From Erysipelotrichaceae bacterium (GTDB lineage: Bacteria > Bacillota_I > Bacilli_A > RFN20 > CAG-449), in assembly GCA_015059045.1 (NCBI GenBank), contig SVBD01000001.1, positions 135,876-199,875 on the forward strand: a stretch of DNA of 64,000 nucleotides. Reading direction: 5' to 3'. Both the position numbers and the translations under genes were made by a program. Below, piece after piece: positions 52,529 to 58,852 of this stretch (position 1 is its first letter; the number at the start of each line of letters is the position of its first letter). Below the pieces are notes generated by a model. That model was not told where the DNA came from and did not search any database. It worked only from the letters and a program-made list of their open reading frames with translations.

Positions 52529-54820
52529 ATGCAGGATTTTATGGCGGAGCTGAAAGCAATGTCCATATGGTTTCATTGGCATTGGGAACAGGATAAGAAC
52601 GGACGGCAGACCAAAGTGCCTCACGCAGCAAGAGGCGGCGCAACCGGAACTTCCGAGCAGTGGGCGCATACGTGGGTCACATATGAAGATGCACTTGCCC
52701 TGAAAGATGAGCAACACGCCTCGGGGCTTGGCTTCAAGGTACCTGATGGCTACTTCTTTCTTGATGCCGATCATTACGGACTTGAAGATCCCTTTATACA
52801 AGTGCTCCTTGAACGCTTCAATTCATATACGGAACGTTCGGTCAGCGGCGGAGGCATCCACATCTACGGCAGATGCGATGTCGGAAAGCTACCCATTGTT
52901 ACCGATAAAAACGGAAAGCAAAAGCTCGACGGCGCATTCTACGTAAAAAATCCCGGCAACCGCCTTGAACTTTATATCGGTGATCTTACCAACCGCTTTG
53001 CCGTATTCACCGGAGACGTGGTATGGGAGCAACCTCTTAAGGAATGCACCAATGCCGTGCTTACAACCCTCGATAAAAATATGCGCCGATCCGAAAAGAA
53101 GAAGTACAGCGAAAGCCGTGATGGGGACAAGGTTACCTTTGACCTCATATGCAATCTGCGAAAGCAGAAGAACGGAGATAAATTTCGTAAGCTCTTCGAT
53201 GACGGCGATATCAGTGACTACGGTTCTCACTCTGAAGCCGATGCCGCCCTGTGTGCCTTGATAGCCTTTCGCGCCGGGGATGACCCCGAGATGATTGATA
53301 TGCTCTTTCGACAATCAGCTCTCTATCGTGAGAAGTGGGAGCGTGATGACTATCGGAGTGCCACTATCAACATCGGCATTCGTGCCTGCAACGGAGAGTA
53401 TCACCGCTCCAAAATGCCTCATCCGTATTTTATCAAGTTTGACGATGATGGAATTCCTCACATTTGCGTTCCACTCCTTGCCAAATACGTGCGAGAGCAT
53501 CTTTGCTATCTGCTTGTCCGTGATAACGGCAAACAAGGACTCCTTCGGTACGTTTACGATGAGGACGGATGCTACCGCTTATATTCCTCGGATATGTTCC
53601 TCGGGGCAATCAAACGGTTTATTGCCGACTATGATGAGGAGCTTGTAAAAATGAGCAAGGTCAATGAAGTCTTACAGCACATCAGCACCGACCTCAACTA
53701 CATCAGCCAAGAGGAGCTTGACAGTAATGAGAGCATCATCAATTTCAAGAACGGCTTGCTGCAAGTAACAGAGACGGACACAACGCTCCTTATGCATACT
53801 CCCGAGGTCATCTCTACCATACAGATTCCGTGCGAGTGGCGTGGGCATCCGACCCCAACACCGGTATTTGACCGTTATATGCATACCCTCACCAACGGAG
53901 ATAAAGCCACCGAGGAACTTCTCCTGCAGTTCATAGGCGCGTGTATTTCCAATATAAAAGGATGGCGAATGAAAAAATCCCTCTTCCTTGTGGGTGACGG
54001 CAATACGGGTAAATCACAGCTCAAAAGCCTCGTGGAGCGGTTGCTCGGCAAAGGCAACTTTATCGGTATCGACCTCAAAGAGATCGAGGCTCGGTTCGGC
54101 ACGGGTGCTGTATACGGCACTCGTCTCGCAGGTAGTTCAGATATGAGCTTTCTCACCGTGGACGAGCTTAAGACCTTTAAGAAAATGACGGGCGGTGACA
54201 GCCTTTACGCAGAGTTCAAGGGTCAGCAAGCCTTTGAGTATACCTACGGCGGGTTGCTTTGGTTCTGTATGAATCGCTTGCCGAAGTTCGGAGGTGACGA
54301 TGGGCAATGGGTATATGACCGCATTATGGTCGTCAACTGTCCCAACGTGATACCGAAGGACAAGCAAGACAAAAAGCTCCTCGATAAGATGTATGCCGAG
54401 CGTGAGGGCATCGTTTACAAAGCTGTAAAAGCCTTGCAGACCGTTATCGCAAACGGCTATAGGTTCTCCGAGCCTGAATCCGTAAGCCTTGCACGTGAGC
54501 GTTATATGAACGAGAACAGCACGGTGGTCTCCTTCTTTGAGGAGTGTATGTGTCCGCTCCCCGGCGGCAAAATCAATCCCCATTGTACTACCGGGCGCAT
54601 CTTCCGTGTGTACCAGGCTTGGTGCTTTGAGAACAACCACGGCTATGCAAAGTCAGCCAAGGAGTTCCGAGAGGAGCTTGCCGACTACCTCGGTACTACT
54701 CATGCTGATATGACTATGCGCCAAAAAGGAAACACCTACTACCGCGAGTACACGCTTACGCTTGAAACCAAGGAGCAATATTCAAGGGAGTACGGCTTTG
54801 ATACCACGGAGTTCTTATGA
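52529..54820 (+). CDS. Replication primase-polymerase/SF3 helicase (phage/plasmid P4-family primase, D5-like)
   Basis: 763 aa; N-terminal prim-pol motifs (FFLDADH, SGGGIHIY); C-terminal SF3 helicase Walker A GDGNTGKS; AAGGAGG RBS. Confidence 0.8.
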   Translation: MQDFMAELKAMSIWFHWHWEQDKNGRQTKVPHAARGGATGTSEQWAHTWVTYEDALALKDEQHASGLGFKVPDGYFFLDADHYGLEDPFIQVLLERFNSYTERSVSGGGIHIYGRCDVGKLPIVTDKNGKQKLDGAFYVKNPGNRLELYIGDLTNRFAVFTGDVVWEQPLKECTNAVLTTLDKNMRRSEKKKYSESRDGDKVTFDLICNLRKQKNGDKFRKLFDDGDISDYGSHSEADAALCALIAFRAGDDPEMIDMLFRQSALYREKWERDDYRSATINIGIRACNGEYHRSKMPHPYFIKFDDDGIPHICVPLLAKYVREHLCYLLVRDNGKQGLLRYVYDEDGCYRLYSSDMFLGAIKRFIADYDEELVKMSKVNEVLQHISTDLNYISQEELDSNESIINFKNGLLQVTETDTTLLMHTPEVISTIQIPCEWRGHPTPTPVFDRYMHTLTNGDKATEELLLQFIGACISNIKGWRMKKSLFLVGDGNTGKSQLKSLVERLLGKGNFIGIDLKEIEARFGTGAVYGTRLAGSSDMSFLTVDELKTFKKMTGGDSLYAEFKGQQAFEYTYGGLLWFCMNRLPKFGGDDGQWVYDRIMVVNCPNVIPKDKQDKKLLDKMYAEREGIVYKAVKALQTVIANGYRFSEPESVSLARERYMNENSTVVSFFEECMCPLPGGKINPHCTTGRIFRVYQAWCFENNHGYAKSAKEFREELADYLGTTHADMTMRQKGNTYYREYTLTLETKEQYSREYGFDTTEFL

Positions 54821-54828
54821 CCCCTTGG

Positions 54829-54958
54829 GTAGCAGAGGTAGCAGTAGTAGCAGTTTCAAAATCTTCTCAGCAAAATTCAAAAAACTTTATAAGTAGGTGT
54901 GTAGGTAGAAAGAAGATATAAAAATCTGTCAGCAGAATTGAAATTACTGCTACCTCTG
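54829..54958. repeat. 17-bp inverted repeat pair (GGTAGCAGAGGTAGCAG / CTGCTACCTCTGCTACC) separated by about 95 bp, just 3' of the primase gene
   Basis: Seen directly in the sequence; an additional GTGTAGGTAG/CTACCTACAC pairing; a possible 14-codon leader ORF (MIVFTDAEGPVKSL) with a strong RBS follows. Confidence 0.5.
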
Positions 54959-55134
54959 CTACCTACACGAAAGGAGGTGGTGCCTATGATTGTGTTTACC
55001 GATGCCGAGGGCCCGGTCAAATCTCTGTGACTAAAAATACGTACAGCGGGCAAGGGCTTTCACGCGCAAAAATTCGAATTCAAACGGGGTATTAACCCCT
55101 AATTCAAACATTCATCAAGAAAGGAACAATTATT

Positions 55135-56946: not shown

Positions 56947-56956
56947 GGACGAGCCT

Positions 56957-57124
56957 ATGGAGAAAACCAAGGAATGCTCTCATAAGACCGAAACCGTTAT
57001 TGACGGCACGGTCTATATCGTGGAATCGGTGAGTGCCGAATCCGCCAAGGACGTGGTGTACGGCAAGGTGAAAAAGCTCATCCTTGACCACGCAAAGTTA
57101 TCCGTAAGTTCACAAGCATCATAA
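56957..57124 (+). CDS. Hypothetical small protein (55 aa) upstream of the recombinase
   Basis: Encodes MEKTKECSHKTETVIDGTVYIVESVSAESAKDVVYGKVKKLILDHAKLSVSSQAS; not in the track because it is under 60 aa. Confidence 0.35.
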   Translation: MEKTKECSHKTETVIDGTVYIVESVSAESAKDVVYGKVKKLILDHAKLSVSSQAS

Positions 57125-57199
57125 CACAAAAGACTTGACTTTTTGGCGATAGTACGGGATAATACAGTACCGCTTGAAGGCTGTCGGAAAGGAGTAAAA

Positions 57200-58852
57200 A
57201 TGAATAACAGACAGCCTACTATCGCCAAGAACGATAGCAAAATTACGGCATTATATTGCCGCCTCTCCCGTGATGACGAACTTCAGGGAGACAGCAACAG
57301 TATCATCAACCAAAAAGCCATTTTGCAGAAATACGCAGATGACAACGGGTTCGGCAACACAATGTTCTTTGTGGATGACGGATACAGCGGAACGAATTTT
57401 GATAGACCTGATTGGCAACGCCTCATCTCTCTTGCGGAAGACGGCAAGATCGGAACGGTCATCGTAAAGGATATGAGCCGACTCGGCAGAGACTACCTCA
57501 AGGTCGGTTACTACACCGAGGTATTCTTTCCGGGCGTTGATATCCGCTTCATTGCCATAAACAACGGTGTGGACAGTGCCAATCAGCAAGACAGCGATTT
57601 CACTCCGTTCCTCAATATCATCAATGAGTGGTACGCCAAGGATACAAGCAAGAAGATACGCGCCGTATTCAAAGCAAAGGGACAATCGGGAAAACCGCTG
57701 TGTACGAACCCACCATACGGATATGTAAAAGACCCCGAGGACAAAAGCCGATGGATTATCGATCCCGAAGCCGCAGAGGTTGTGAGAGAAATCTTCAGCC
57801 TCTGTGTGCAAGGGTACGGACCCACGCAGATTGCAAAGGAGTTGACACGGAGAAAAATTGAGAACCCCGTGGCACACGCTCGTAGGCTCGGCATAACCAT
57901 TCCGGCAAAGCCTCTTGATGATGACCCTTGCATATGGCACGATTCCACGGTGGCTCGGCTGCTGACTCGTGTAGAGTATTTGGGGCATACGGCAAACTTC
58001 AAGACCTACCGCAAATCCTACAAGAACAAGAAGCAGATGCACAATGACCGCGAGGAATGGCAGATTTTTGAGAATACCCACGAGGCTATCATCGACCAAG
58101 AGACCTTTGACATTGTGCAGAAAATTCGTGACGGACGGCGCAGGCTGACTCCTATGGGTGAGATGCCGATCCTTTCGGGAATGCTCTTCTGTGCCGATTG
58201 CGGGGCAAAGCTCTACCAGGTGCGTGGGCGTGGATGGGAGCATAGCCAAGAATACTTCGTGTGTGCTACATACCGAAAGCAAAAAGGCAAATGCAGTTCC
58301 CATCAAATTCGCAACGTGGTCATTGAGCAACTTCTCCTTGAGGATATCCGCAGGGTCACATCTTATGCAAGAGAGCACGAAGACGAGTTCGTAAGGCTTG
58401 TGACGCAAAAGTCCAAGCAGGAGACCGAACGCAATCTTCGTGAGAGTAAAAAGGAACTTGAGGTAGCCAAGGCTCGTATTTCCAAACTCGACAGCATAAT
58501 CCAAAGGCTATACGAGGACAACATAGAAGGCAAGGTTTCCGATGAGCGTTTCGCAAAGCTGACCGATACCTATGAATCCGAGCAAAGAGACCTTGAACGT
58601 CGCATTGCGGAACTGCAGAACTTTATGGCAAACGCAAAAAATGAGTCCCTTGGTGTGGATACCTTCCTTTCGATGGTTAGAAGGTATACGGACATCAAGG
58701 AACTCGATGCGGAGCTTATCCGTGTGTTCGTTGAAAAAATCCTCGTCTACAAAGCTGAAAAGGTTGACGGACACAGGGTTCAGCGTATTAAAATCATATA
58801 CAACGGCATCGGTGAAATACCGACAACGCCTATAAACGAGAAAACGGCATAG
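57200..58852 (+). CDS. Large serine recombinase (integrase)
   Basis: Start at [10 protein letters not shown], which has a GGAGT RBS; catalytic [10 protein letters not shown]; resolvase domain, recombinase domain, Cys-containing zinc-ribbon region and coiled-coil C-terminus; 550 aa. Confidence 0.9.

Follow-up and report, generated by a model that had tools for sequence, protein, structure and literature searches.

A small integrative element of an Erysipelotrichaceae genome with a delta-less HK97-fold capsid gene and a phage-shared non-coding motif: a probable cos-type phage satellite

The DNA considered here, 64,000 nucleotides (nt) of contig SVBD01000001.1 from an Erysipelotrichaceae bacterium (assembly GCA_015059045.1, positions 135,876 to 199,875; this whole stretch is termed the window), contains an integrative element with genes for a primase-helicase, a capsid protein and a large serine recombinase. 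Judged by its genes and by comparison with its relatives, the element is probably a cos-type phage satellite, akin in lifestyle to the phage-inducible chromosomal islands (PICIs), whose helpers would be HK97-like siphophages of the Ca. Heliusvirales or phi1207.3 type. A satellite had already been proposed in an earlier, sequence-only reading of the window, and support for that proposal now comes from the architecture of a family of related loci, from a constrained HK97-fold capsid gene, from a motif shared with phages and from the occasional presence of TerS. Two features, the most telling ones, are new relative to that reading, namely the absence of the delta domain from the capsid protein and the presence, upstream of the capsid operon, of the phage-shared motif, which is non-coding and about 100 nt long. 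Packaging and dependence on a helper are suggested by analogy with known satellites.

Every gene listed in the sequence-only reading is present where that reading had placed it, as judged with Pfam, PHROG and NCBIfam (Table 1). The absences that it reported hold as well: Pfam searches with all 15 open reading frames (ORFs) of the element and PHROG searches with ten of them (the eight from the helix-turn-helix gene to the recombinase, the DUF6809 ORF and the 52-amino-acid (aa) ORF) gave no terminase, portal, protease or tail match. The nearest phages' TerL, portal, ClpP, adaptor and tail proteins, used as tblastn queries, had no match in the element either, although they readily detected their genes in the approximately 55 phage loci that served as a positive control. 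No relaxase, oriT-like Mob gene or coupling protein was found in the element (Pfam, all ORFs), nor did the ten ORFs compared with PHROGs show a relaxase or Mob family; in the relatives examined, genes annotated by Pfam likewise include no relaxase, Mob or coupling protein.

The profile search against HK97 major capsid protein families which had been suggested with the first reading places the capsid protein in PF05065 (1.8e-57) and TIGR01554 (7e-62, covering model positions 126-384 of 385). With its AlphaFold model (predicted local distance difference test score, pLDDT, 88; predicted template modelling score, pTM, 0.84) Foldseek retrieves the capsid of RcGTA, a gene transfer agent from Rhodobacter capsulatus (E 1e-21), phage Mycofy1, the capsid-forming PICI (cf-PICI) EcCI2, HK97 and the SaPIbov5 procapsid entry 7rwz, with encapsulins at lower rank. 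What had been described as a 325-aa capsid homologue is thus a true HK97-fold capsid protein, but of 312 aa, since homologues (305-321 aa) and the gene calls on the source contig put its start at ATG 56008. For the capsid gene, the ratio of nonsynonymous to synonymous substitution rates (dN/dS) is 0.09-0.13 when the window is compared with five relatives, and the gene is therefore under purifying selection.

The nearest phage capsid proteins, Orf42 of Streptococcus phi1207.3 and the 'major head protein' of Ca. Heliusvirales, are approximately 395-400 aa long, are 35-38% identical to that of the window and are encoded in the gene order terS, terL, portal, Clp protease, capsid gene. In alignment A1, the phage homologues have about 80 additional N-terminal coiled-coil residues (ILELREKRAK...LGKEIDRLERQE...), whereas every island capsid protein (about 312 aa) lacks that segment and starts within a few residues of its end. 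By its position and character the segment would correspond to the delta domain of HK97-type capsid proteins, an internal scaffold that is removed by the prohead protease (PMC5052747), and the island protein, otherwise complete, would correspond to the mature form of the phage protein. Most island loci have no room upstream of the capsid start for a delta domain. The possibility that a small ORF encodes a detached delta or scaffold domain was considered and is not supported: the phage delta domains used as tblastn queries matched no island locus, and the AlphaFold model of one of these ORFs, s93zn, is mixed beta/alpha and not coiled coil. In a neighbor-joining tree the phage capsid proteins form one clade apart from the island ones, the single exception being a misclassified truncated phage locus.

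A blastn search with the sequence that separates the primase gene from the first small ORF finds matches in Ca. Heliusvirales phages and in a Terrisporobacter phage, and a reciprocal search with the motif adds Streptococcus Javan prophages. In annotated phages the motif is just after an HNH endonuclease gene, and the next ORF is terS (phrog_83, E 1e-28 to 1e-37). The order in six phage loci is activator, HNH, motif, terS, terL, portal, ClpP protease and capsid gene, with the motif occupying nearly the whole of the HNH-terS gap. Across Streptococcus, Terrisporobacter, Ruminococcus and Oscillospirales phages (MK448700 Javan191, MK448667 and related Streptococcus prophages, and the Terrisporobacter phage PP197246) the motif is 75-80% identical at the nucleotide level, and in the Heliusvirales-type phage loci compared this exceeds the amino acid identity of the flanking HNH and TerS proteins (approximately 55-67%).

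With a profile built from six copies, the motif is found no more than 1.5 kb from the capsid gene in 108 of 121 island loci. In 43 loci it precedes the capsid operon only and is on the coding strand, and in 53 it follows the capsid gene only and is on the opposite strand; in the other arrangement, seen in 11 loci, inverted copies flank the capsid gene (L015, L016, L017, L025, L029, L079, L084 and L099 are among these). Consideration of the motif as a known or structured RNA led to rejection of that possibility, as no Rfam family matches it and RNAalifold gave zero consensus pairs for 78 copies; folding z-scores calculated per segment are weak, except for one short hairpin wanting in many copies. 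With no conserved RNA structure, the motif is therefore treated as a sequence-conserved DNA site, and its occurrence in either orientation near the capsid gene fits such a site better than a promoter. It is proposed to be a cos-like packaging signal, with which its position, its independence of orientation and its single copy per phage are compatible. The HNH-terS gap is the canonical position of cos in HNH-dependent cos phages such as HK97 and the staphylococcal phi12 and phiSLT, and cos reportedly lies between the HNH and terS genes of such phages, as Kala et al. and Quiles-Puchalt et al. are said to have described in 2014. The proposed identity with cos is drawn from that position in phages, the element of the window having no terS.

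Relatives of the capsid protein are numerous, with 1,947 protein clusters at E <= 1e-3, and among the 120 matches listed almost all are 305-325 aa. The genomic context of 80 loci in GTDB genomes, of 80 IMG/VR contigs and of several metagenome contigs was surveyed by tblastn, and the loci split cleanly into about 120 of island type and about 55 of phage type. In the former, whose capsid proteins are 39-84% identical to that of the window, the order is primase, small ORFs, capsid gene, TnpW or Xis, integrase: the primase-helicase gene is about 3 kb upstream of the capsid gene and is followed by one to four small ORFs, and downstream there is either TnpW with a serine recombinase or a Tn916-type Xis with a tyrosine integrase. 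The delta domain is absent, and no TerL, portal, protease or tail gene is found within 10 kb. In the latter (36-38% identity) the delta domain and all of these genes are present, with the ClpP protease gene at -1 kb, portal at -2.2 kb and TerL at about -3.9 kb, and with adaptor and tail genes downstream. Recurrence of the island arrangement in about 120 loci is far beyond chance. The hosts are mostly Clostridia (Oscillospiraceae, Lachnospiraceae, Christensenellales, Peptococcaceae), with Negativicutes, Erysipelotrichaceae, a Synergistota metagenome-assembled genome (MAG) and an Atribacteria MAG in addition. Island-type capsid genes are also present in isolate genomes, among them those of Anaerobium acetethylicum GluBS11, Neglectibacter timonensis SN17, Suipraeoptans intestinalis 68-1-5 and Acetivibrio mesophilus N2K1.

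Modules are exchanged within the family. Locus L040 is 96% identical to the window in its primase and 95% in its recombinase but only 48% in its capsid protein, as expected if capsid alleles track different helpers; L014 has the converse pattern. With its inverted pair of motif copies, the capsid gene could be an exchangeable cassette, for which L040 is a pertinent comparison. Since tyrosine-integrase variants keep the capsid module, it is that module and not the transposon module that defines the family; in one such variant (metagenome contigs L004-L006) there is a DUF3987 primase, with a Tn916-type Xis and tyrosine integrase in place of TnpW and the serine recombinase, and neighbors that include Eco47II restriction-modification and a STAND/kinase protein. 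In three loci (L082, 9378-9902; L092, 627-1151; L110, 9074-9622) the gene immediately before the delta-less capsid gene encodes a TerS that is 49-53% identical to that of Heliusvirales, and none of the three has the motif. This is as expected if the motif is a terminase recognition site, and TerS there looks like an alternative way to engage the helper terminase. On a 5.4-kb IMG/VR contig, L097 (3636-5354), a delta-less capsid gene that accompanies small ORFs and a primase of island type is followed by the gene for a head-tail adaptor, Ad1 (82% identical to one from Heliusvirales), and by the next head-completion gene; this is either a satellite-phage hybrid or an assembly chimera. A full-text literature search, of incomplete coverage, yielded no description of a family of islands with a delta-less capsid gene, and the Heliusvirales paper has no mention of satellites, cos or HNH.

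The 13.7-kb element of the sequence-only reading has been given exact ends, 45233 and 58912, by comparison with five independent insertions of its backbone. The left end is fixed by the junction comparison at AAAGATGGTGCAACTTAGGGATTT and the right end at AAATCCCTAATTTGCACCCACAAA, the two being imperfect inverted repeats, a relationship also evident in the attL arm, which is an imperfect inverted repeat of the right end of the element. The right-end motif AAATCCCTAA-N3-GCACC is conserved in approximately 35 relatives, about 3.1 kb from the start of the capsid gene. Composition is in keeping with these borders: G+C content (GC) is 43% in the element and 27-28% in the host, and along approximately 45.2-58.9 kb it is 35-49% and in flanking host sequence 21-30%. 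Integration, to judge from the junctions, is by conservative recombination at a 2-bp AA core, catalyzed by the TnpX-like serine recombinase with loose choice of target. That recombinase (PHROG integrase, 3e-101) starts at ATG 57200 and has 550 aa, not 569, a correction made from homologues and the gene calls on the source contig.

Mobility is evident from near-identical copies. An identical primase protein is encoded on 21 metagenome contigs, one of which, L173 (ENA ERZ27247464), is the same locus as the window. Loci L174-L178 have a backbone that is 99.3-99.5% identical at the nucleotide level over window positions 51807-58913, while their cargo (three C5 methylases and a BpuJI-like nuclease) and their flanks differ, so that the same backbone is seen at six different sites with precise ends and different cargo. 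Six different target sites are similarly counted for recombinases that are at least 95% identical. In each of L174, L175 and L014 the target reads as the loop of a terminator-like hairpin, in one case just behind a tRNA gene, and the recombinase therefore prefers dyad-symmetric sites rather than one attB. GC next to the near-identical copies, L174-L178 compared with the window, is 23%, 34%, about 40%, about 45-58% and about 60%, which implies very recent movement between unrelated hosts. Total size is less variable: the window element has 13,680 bp, the L174 type approximately 13,803 bp and L014 about 12.7 kb, with different cargo in each, and between the window and the L174 type the whole 6.5-kb cargo arm is swapped with total size staying within about 120 bp. 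These three are the exact sizes available, from searches for the conserved end motif, left ends usually being beyond the 10-kb flank; some 20 further relatives exceed 13 kb. Near-identical DNA was searched for in phage and plasmid collections and was not found there.

For the origin proposed in the sequence-only reading, the better supported candidate site is 3' of the primase gene and not at the upstream repeats. Directly after the primase stop codon is a 28-nt inverted repeat built of GGTAGCAG-type 9-mers, and the same iteron architecture follows the primase stop in most of approximately 40 relatives. The iteron unit differs with the type of primase (GTAGCAG, GTGACAG, GTGGTCG, GTGGCAG or CTGACAG), and iterons that change in step with the primase mark an origin. 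Origins of the Staphylococcus aureus pathogenicity islands (SaPIs) similarly have iterons 3' of the initiator gene that change in step with the initiator. The primase-helicase (PHROG 1829 DNA primase, 2e-115; NCBIfam TIGR01613, the P4-family primase C-terminal domain, 1e-45) is the predicted replication initiator. The repeats that precede the primase gene give rise to spurious ORFs on both strands, and could be regulatory or a second origin element.

The closest known analogue is SaPIbov5, which carries the cos site of phi12 together with Ccm, a capsid homologue that is located at pentamers and makes small capsids (PMC5052747; PMC8569155). Both are islands of about 13-14 kb with an integrase and primase or replication genes and with no terminase, portal or tail genes; both have a lone HK97-fold capsid homologue, that of SaPIbov5 forcing small capsids and blocking the helper; and SaPIbov5 has a copy of the helper cos site, for which the motif of the element is a candidate by position. 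The helpers of SaPIbov5 are HNH-dependent cos phages that have a delta-domain capsid protein and no separate scaffold, and the same would be so for the proposed helpers here. However, Ccm keeps a cleaved 87-aa delta domain, whereas the element protein starts where the mature protein would. In a phmmer search of PDB sequences the capsid protein did not retrieve Ccm, the match to 7rwz being at fold level only. Further differences from SaPIbov5 are a site-specific tyrosine integrase there and a multi-target serine recombinase here, virulence cargo there and defense cargo here, and Staphylococcus aureus rather than Clostridia and Erysipelotrichia as hosts. With respect to the definition of a PICI, the element is within 10-15 kb, has its recombinase at the right end, has no head, tail or lysis genes bar the one capsid homologue, and has its own primase with an adjacent cognate iteron origin. 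What sets it apart from that definition, a tyrosine integrase with a unique attB, is a serine recombinase with six targets, some relatives having a Tn916-type tyrosine integrase.

On the satellite reading, the lytic cycle of a helper would lead to excision of the element by its recombinase, perhaps with TnpW, and the excised element would replicate from its own origin. TnpW, 31 distinct homologues of which are encoded between a capsid gene and a recombinase gene, may be an excision or directionality factor, as it occupies the position that the Tn916-type Xis has in the tyrosine-integrase variants. TerS, TerL and HNH of the helper would recognize the element DNA and cut it at the motif common to both, which would serve as cos. 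The island capsid subunit, lacking delta, might then co-assemble with the full-length helper capsid protein on the helper portal and make the shells small, in the way that Ccm does at the pentamers in the case of SaPIbov5, such that about 13-14 kb would fit and the helper genome would be excluded. The particles would be completed by helper tails, and the island subunit would, by analogy with SaPIbov5, block the helper. At 13.7 kb the element is approximately a quarter of the 49-75-kb helper genomes, from which it is inferred that a smaller shell would be needed for stable packaging of unit-length DNA.

A number of considerations weigh against this reading. HK97 cannot assemble without its delta domain (Oh et al. 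2014, as cited in PMC5052747), and Ccm retains one; that a delta-less subunit could enter a shell is therefore conjectural. A pair of inverted motif copies flanking the capsid gene is awkward for a cos site, and in 54 loci the motif is upstream of the capsid operon on the same strand, where a late promoter or leader is possible. The motif and a delta-less capsid gene could have come about together, in one step, through one deletion within the late operon of a phage. Breadth of hosts from 23 to 60% GC is more typical of conjugative spread than of transduction. Searches for an excised junction with exact attP 25-mers and 26-mers, for two versions of the junction, found none in JGI metagenome contigs or IMG/VR. 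There is no helper prophage within the 64-kb window. The window copy may, moreover, be a dead end, since its insertion destroyed a host gene, mraY.

Of the alternatives, the one given most weight, though unlikely, is that the motif is a late promoter or 5' leader of the helper, with the element dependent on the helper via the late activator and packaged by another signal or by generalized transduction. In phages the motif immediately precedes terS, the first of the late genes, with an ArpU/RinA-like activator (phrog_36/248) two genes before the motif, and in islands, besides the 54 loci just mentioned, it directly precedes the capsid gene in L014 and L015. However, the 53 loci whose sole copy is downstream on the opposite strand have it pointing back into the capsid gene with no ORF to drive, no sigma-70-like hexamer spacing is seen by eye, a scan of the backbone for promoters and terminators gave counts at chance level, and the TerS-encoding islands lack the motif. 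Rather unlikely too is that these are defense islands with phage decoys, spread by conjugative mobilization or transformation and never packaged: the delta-less capsid protein would be a dominant-negative subunit that poisons assembly of Heliusvirales-type phages, and the motif copy would titrate or misdirect terminase. Cargo that always consists of defense genes is in accord with this, as are the HK97 precedent, by which a subunit without its scaffolding domain should disturb assembly, the reduction of phi12 titer 10^3 to 10^7-fold by Ccm itself (PMC5052747), the near-identical copies in backgrounds of 23-60% GC and the lack of an attP circle in the assemblies searched. Yet no relaxase, Mob or coupling protein was found in the element or among the annotated genes of the relatives examined; an origin and primase of its own are needless for a passive island and needed for excision, replication and packaging; TerS in some relatives and a head-tail adaptor in one have to do with packaging and particle completion and are not decoys; and sizes cluster at 12.7-13.8 kb despite unrelated cargo. 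There is also overlap between decoy and satellite, interference and piracy going together in known satellites.

Two other possibilities are much more remote. It is very improbable that the element is an autonomous minimal tailless virus or an encapsulin-like compartment, with a helper-free, self-assembling shell for its own DNA or for protein cargo, as proposed for 8.9-kb 'twilight' elements. 'Twilight' human-gut contigs with direct terminal repeats (DTRs) that have capsid, integrase and replication genes and no terminase, portal or tail (described in the passages drawn on from bioRxiv 10.1101/2025.06.18.659913) lend it something, as does the retrieval of encapsulins by fold, albeit at lower rank. 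Without a scaffold or delta domain, a portal or a packaging ATPase there is, however, no known route of DNA entry; membership of PF05065 and TIGR01554, and not of encapsulin families, counts against an encapsulin; no conserved cargo-protein gene adjoins the capsid gene in the relatives examined; and the phage-derived motif and occasional TerS point to dependence on a phage terminase. Least probable is a decayed prophage remnant, or an ordinary Tn4451-type mobilizable transposon that has retained a phage gene. TnpW and the DUF4368 recombinase do constitute the Tn4451/Tn4453 recombination module, and the capsid gene is clearly of phage origin, but neither decay nor chance retention accords with about 120 compact loci with intact genes across several phyla and a capsid dN/dS of about 0.1, with a 99.4% identical backbone at six sites with precise ends, with the lack of a TnpZ/Mob gene, or with tyrosine-integrase variants that keep the same capsid module.

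Comparison with other small elements brings out further parallels for the proposed satellite. The cf-PICIs (EcCI2; PDB 9gyi) also have their own HK97-fold capsid and use helper tails, and a cf-PICI capsid is among the top structural matches; however, they encode capsid, portal, protease, connectors and one or more terminase subunits, whereas the element has the capsid gene only, with portal, protease, adaptor and terminase searched for and absent. P4 is likewise a small integrative replicon that has a P4-alpha-type primase-helicase (TIGR01613) and no structural genes of its own, and redirects the capsid size of its helper. It does so with Psu and the external scaffold Sid instead of a capsid homologue, to neither of which any element ORF has a Pfam match, and it has a tyrosine integrase and a Proteobacterial host. 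The Clostridium transposons Tn4451 and Tn4453 share the TnpX-type DUF4368 recombinase, TnpW, imperfect inverted-repeat ends, a 2-bp crossover and relaxed targets. The element differs from them in lacking TnpZ, an oriT module and a resistance gene, and in having a primase-helicase, an origin, a capsid gene and the phage-type motif, its recombinase being an exchangeable module. Tn6215 of C. difficile was considered as an element of the same kind and set aside, as the paper on it has a TnpZ-like Mob, RepA_N and a topoisomerase and mentions neither a capsid nor a primase gene. The 'twilight' mini HK97 elements, as described in the preprint passages available (bioRxiv 10.1101/2025.06.18.659913), are also small temperate gut elements with an HK97 capsid, integrase and replication genes, with no terminase, portal or tail and with a satellite lifestyle considered, and they may be related in kind to the island family. 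They are, though, about 8.9 kb and have sigma factors and encapsulin-domain-enriched capsids plus scaffold; the same passages contain no delta-less capsid, HNH-terS motif or link to Heliusvirales.

Table 1. Features of the integrative element and of the host gene that it interrupts (window positions)
Feature	Position	Strand	Length	Basis or remark
Host mraY, 3' part	44428..45232	-		Pfam Glycos_transf_4
attL	45221..45256			host mraY ...ACACCCCCT, AA core, element arm AGATGGTGCAACTTAGGGATTT; junction comparison
Whole integrative element	45233..58912		13,680 bp	ends by alignment with five other backbone insertions and L014; GC step
DUF6809 protein	45357..45656	-	99-aa ORF, 92 aa as called	Pfam PF20648, 7e-23
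AbiGii-like protein (candidate abortive-infection defense)	45723..47051	-	442 aa	PADLOC AbiGii, 1.4e-13
Four cargo ORFs	47048..49329	-	52, 165, 311, 242 aa	function unassigned
EcoRI-type N6-adenine methyltransferase (MTase) and C5-cytosine MTase fusion	49330..51441	-	703 aa	PF13651 5e-120 and PF00145 9e-69; PADLOC type II MTase
XRE-type helix-turn-helix (HTH) protein	51469..51690	-	73 aa	Pfam HTH_26, 3e-22; divergent from primase gene
Degenerate 55-69-bp tandem direct repeats, families D1-D4	51850..52450			between HTH and primase genes; backbone starts 51807
Primase-polymerase / D5-type SF3 helicase, P4 alpha-like	52529..54820	+	763 aa	NrS1 HBD, D5_N, DUF5906, Pox_D5
Candidate replication origin	54828..54968			inverted arrays of GGTAGCAG-type 9-bp iterons around an approximately 80-bp AT-rich spacer
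Conserved non-coding motif, proposed cos-like packaging site	55003..55103	+	~100 nt	blastn to phages
Small ORF s93a	55135..55416	+	93 aa	first gene of capsid operon, family-wide
Small ORF s97	55416..55709	+	97 aa	close relatives only
Small ORF s93zn	55706..55987	+	93 aa	C-terminal CPxCG...CxxC zinc ribbon, family-wide
HK97-fold major capsid protein without delta domain	56008..56946	+	312 aa	PF05065, TIGR01554
TnpW	56957..57124	+	55 aa	Pfam PF14202, 3e-06
TnpX-like large serine recombinase, integrase/excisionase	57200..58852	+	550 aa	Resolvase, Recombinase, Zn_ribbon_recom, DUF4368 (PF14287)
attR	58889..58924			element arm AAATCCCTAATTTGCACCCACA, AA core, host AGTCGGGGTCAA
Host mraY, 5' fragment	58895..59086	-	63 codons	ends ...KKLTPTFVGAN*, cut by insertion; read from sequence

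The small ORFs that precede the capsid gene are less informative. There are 40 distinct homologues of s93a in the same position, and searches of Pfam, PHROG, PADLOC and PDB profiles gave no match for it; s97 has seven distinct homologues and no Pfam or PHROG family match. With s93zn, of which 58 distinct homologues are known, PDB matches are to generic zinc ribbons only, and its AlphaFold model is weak (pLDDT 69) and without a fold match. In L034 (8745-9359), L077 (8562-9335) and L091 (8569-9351) a conserved domain of about 120 aa (...IDLEPVIYRDFGNGFNVEISGVYTT...ATIYLWHG...) precedes the s93a homologue or is fused to it in the ORF call; this domain is absent from the window.

The left part of the element is a variable cargo arm. 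A DUF6809 gene is found at the same, left, end in L014, L015, L016, L040 and L174-L178. The AbiGii-like protein has no Pfam or NCBIfam match, and for those of the four unassigned cargo ORFs that were compared with Pfam, PADLOC and NCBIfam there was none either; from position only, these ORFs probably include a nuclease partner of the methylase. The XRE HTH gene heads the leftward cargo operon, and its product has counterparts conserved at 72-73% in L014 and L015, whose cargo differs, and is replaced by an HTH_17 protein in L174-L178 despite their 99% backbone; it is either an element repressor or a restriction-modification controller. Defense genes are the cargo throughout the relatives examined. 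That of L014 (670-5499, minus strand) includes a 1,609-aa protein in which a DpdF/RecQ-like helicase is combined with a UvrD/GajB-like helicase, probably an uncharacterized defense system, and beside it is a 311-aa protein with no PADLOC match.

The insertion is within codons for the conserved GTPTMGG region of MraY, normally an essential cell-wall protein, and splits the gene. When its halves are joined across the 2-bp TT core (minus strand) the in-frame reading ...LTPT-LGGVAII... is restored, and the 3' part has no in-frame start codon that could rescue it before ATG 45141 (237 aa). This junction was recovered by two independent assemblies at the least and is therefore no assembly artefact. 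Beside mraY is a chimeric 198-aa ORF (43822-44418, minus strand) that joins the N-terminus of a type III glutamine synthetase to the C-terminal half of MurG, and the division and cell wall (dcw) cluster (penicillin-binding protein (PBP), murE, mraY, ..., murB, ftsA, ftsZ), ordinary in other respects, lacks murD, ftsW and the 5' half of murG. Peptidoglycan synthesis may be in the course of being lost from this Erysipelotrichaceae lineage, and that would account for its tolerance of the mraY insertion.

Phage satellites shape gene flow and phage resistance, and the well-studied families are those of Staphylococcus, Enterobacteria and Vibrio, with little known for strict gut anaerobes. A more far-reaching proposition, advanced tentatively, is that the loci discussed here constitute a very large and undescribed satellite family of gut Bacillota that parasitizes Heliusvirales-type phages, using a 'pre-matured' capsid subunit to resize the helper procapsid, together with either mimicry of the HNH-terS site or a TerS of its own, and a promiscuous recombinase that has taken it to hosts of 25-60% GC. 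If so, satellites would be abundant in Clostridia, riding on and interfering with Heliusvirales-type phages, which are among the most widespread of human gut phages. Members would be detectable from the delta-less capsid gene, the approximately 100-nt motif and the primase, and satellite-helper pairs would be predictable from metagenomes. The family also moves defense systems between very different hosts. Whether an HK97 subunit without a delta domain can enter a shell and thereby set its size would then become a structural question, and the combination of a scaffold-less capsid subunit with packaging-site mimicry, or with an island-encoded TerS, would be a new strategy.

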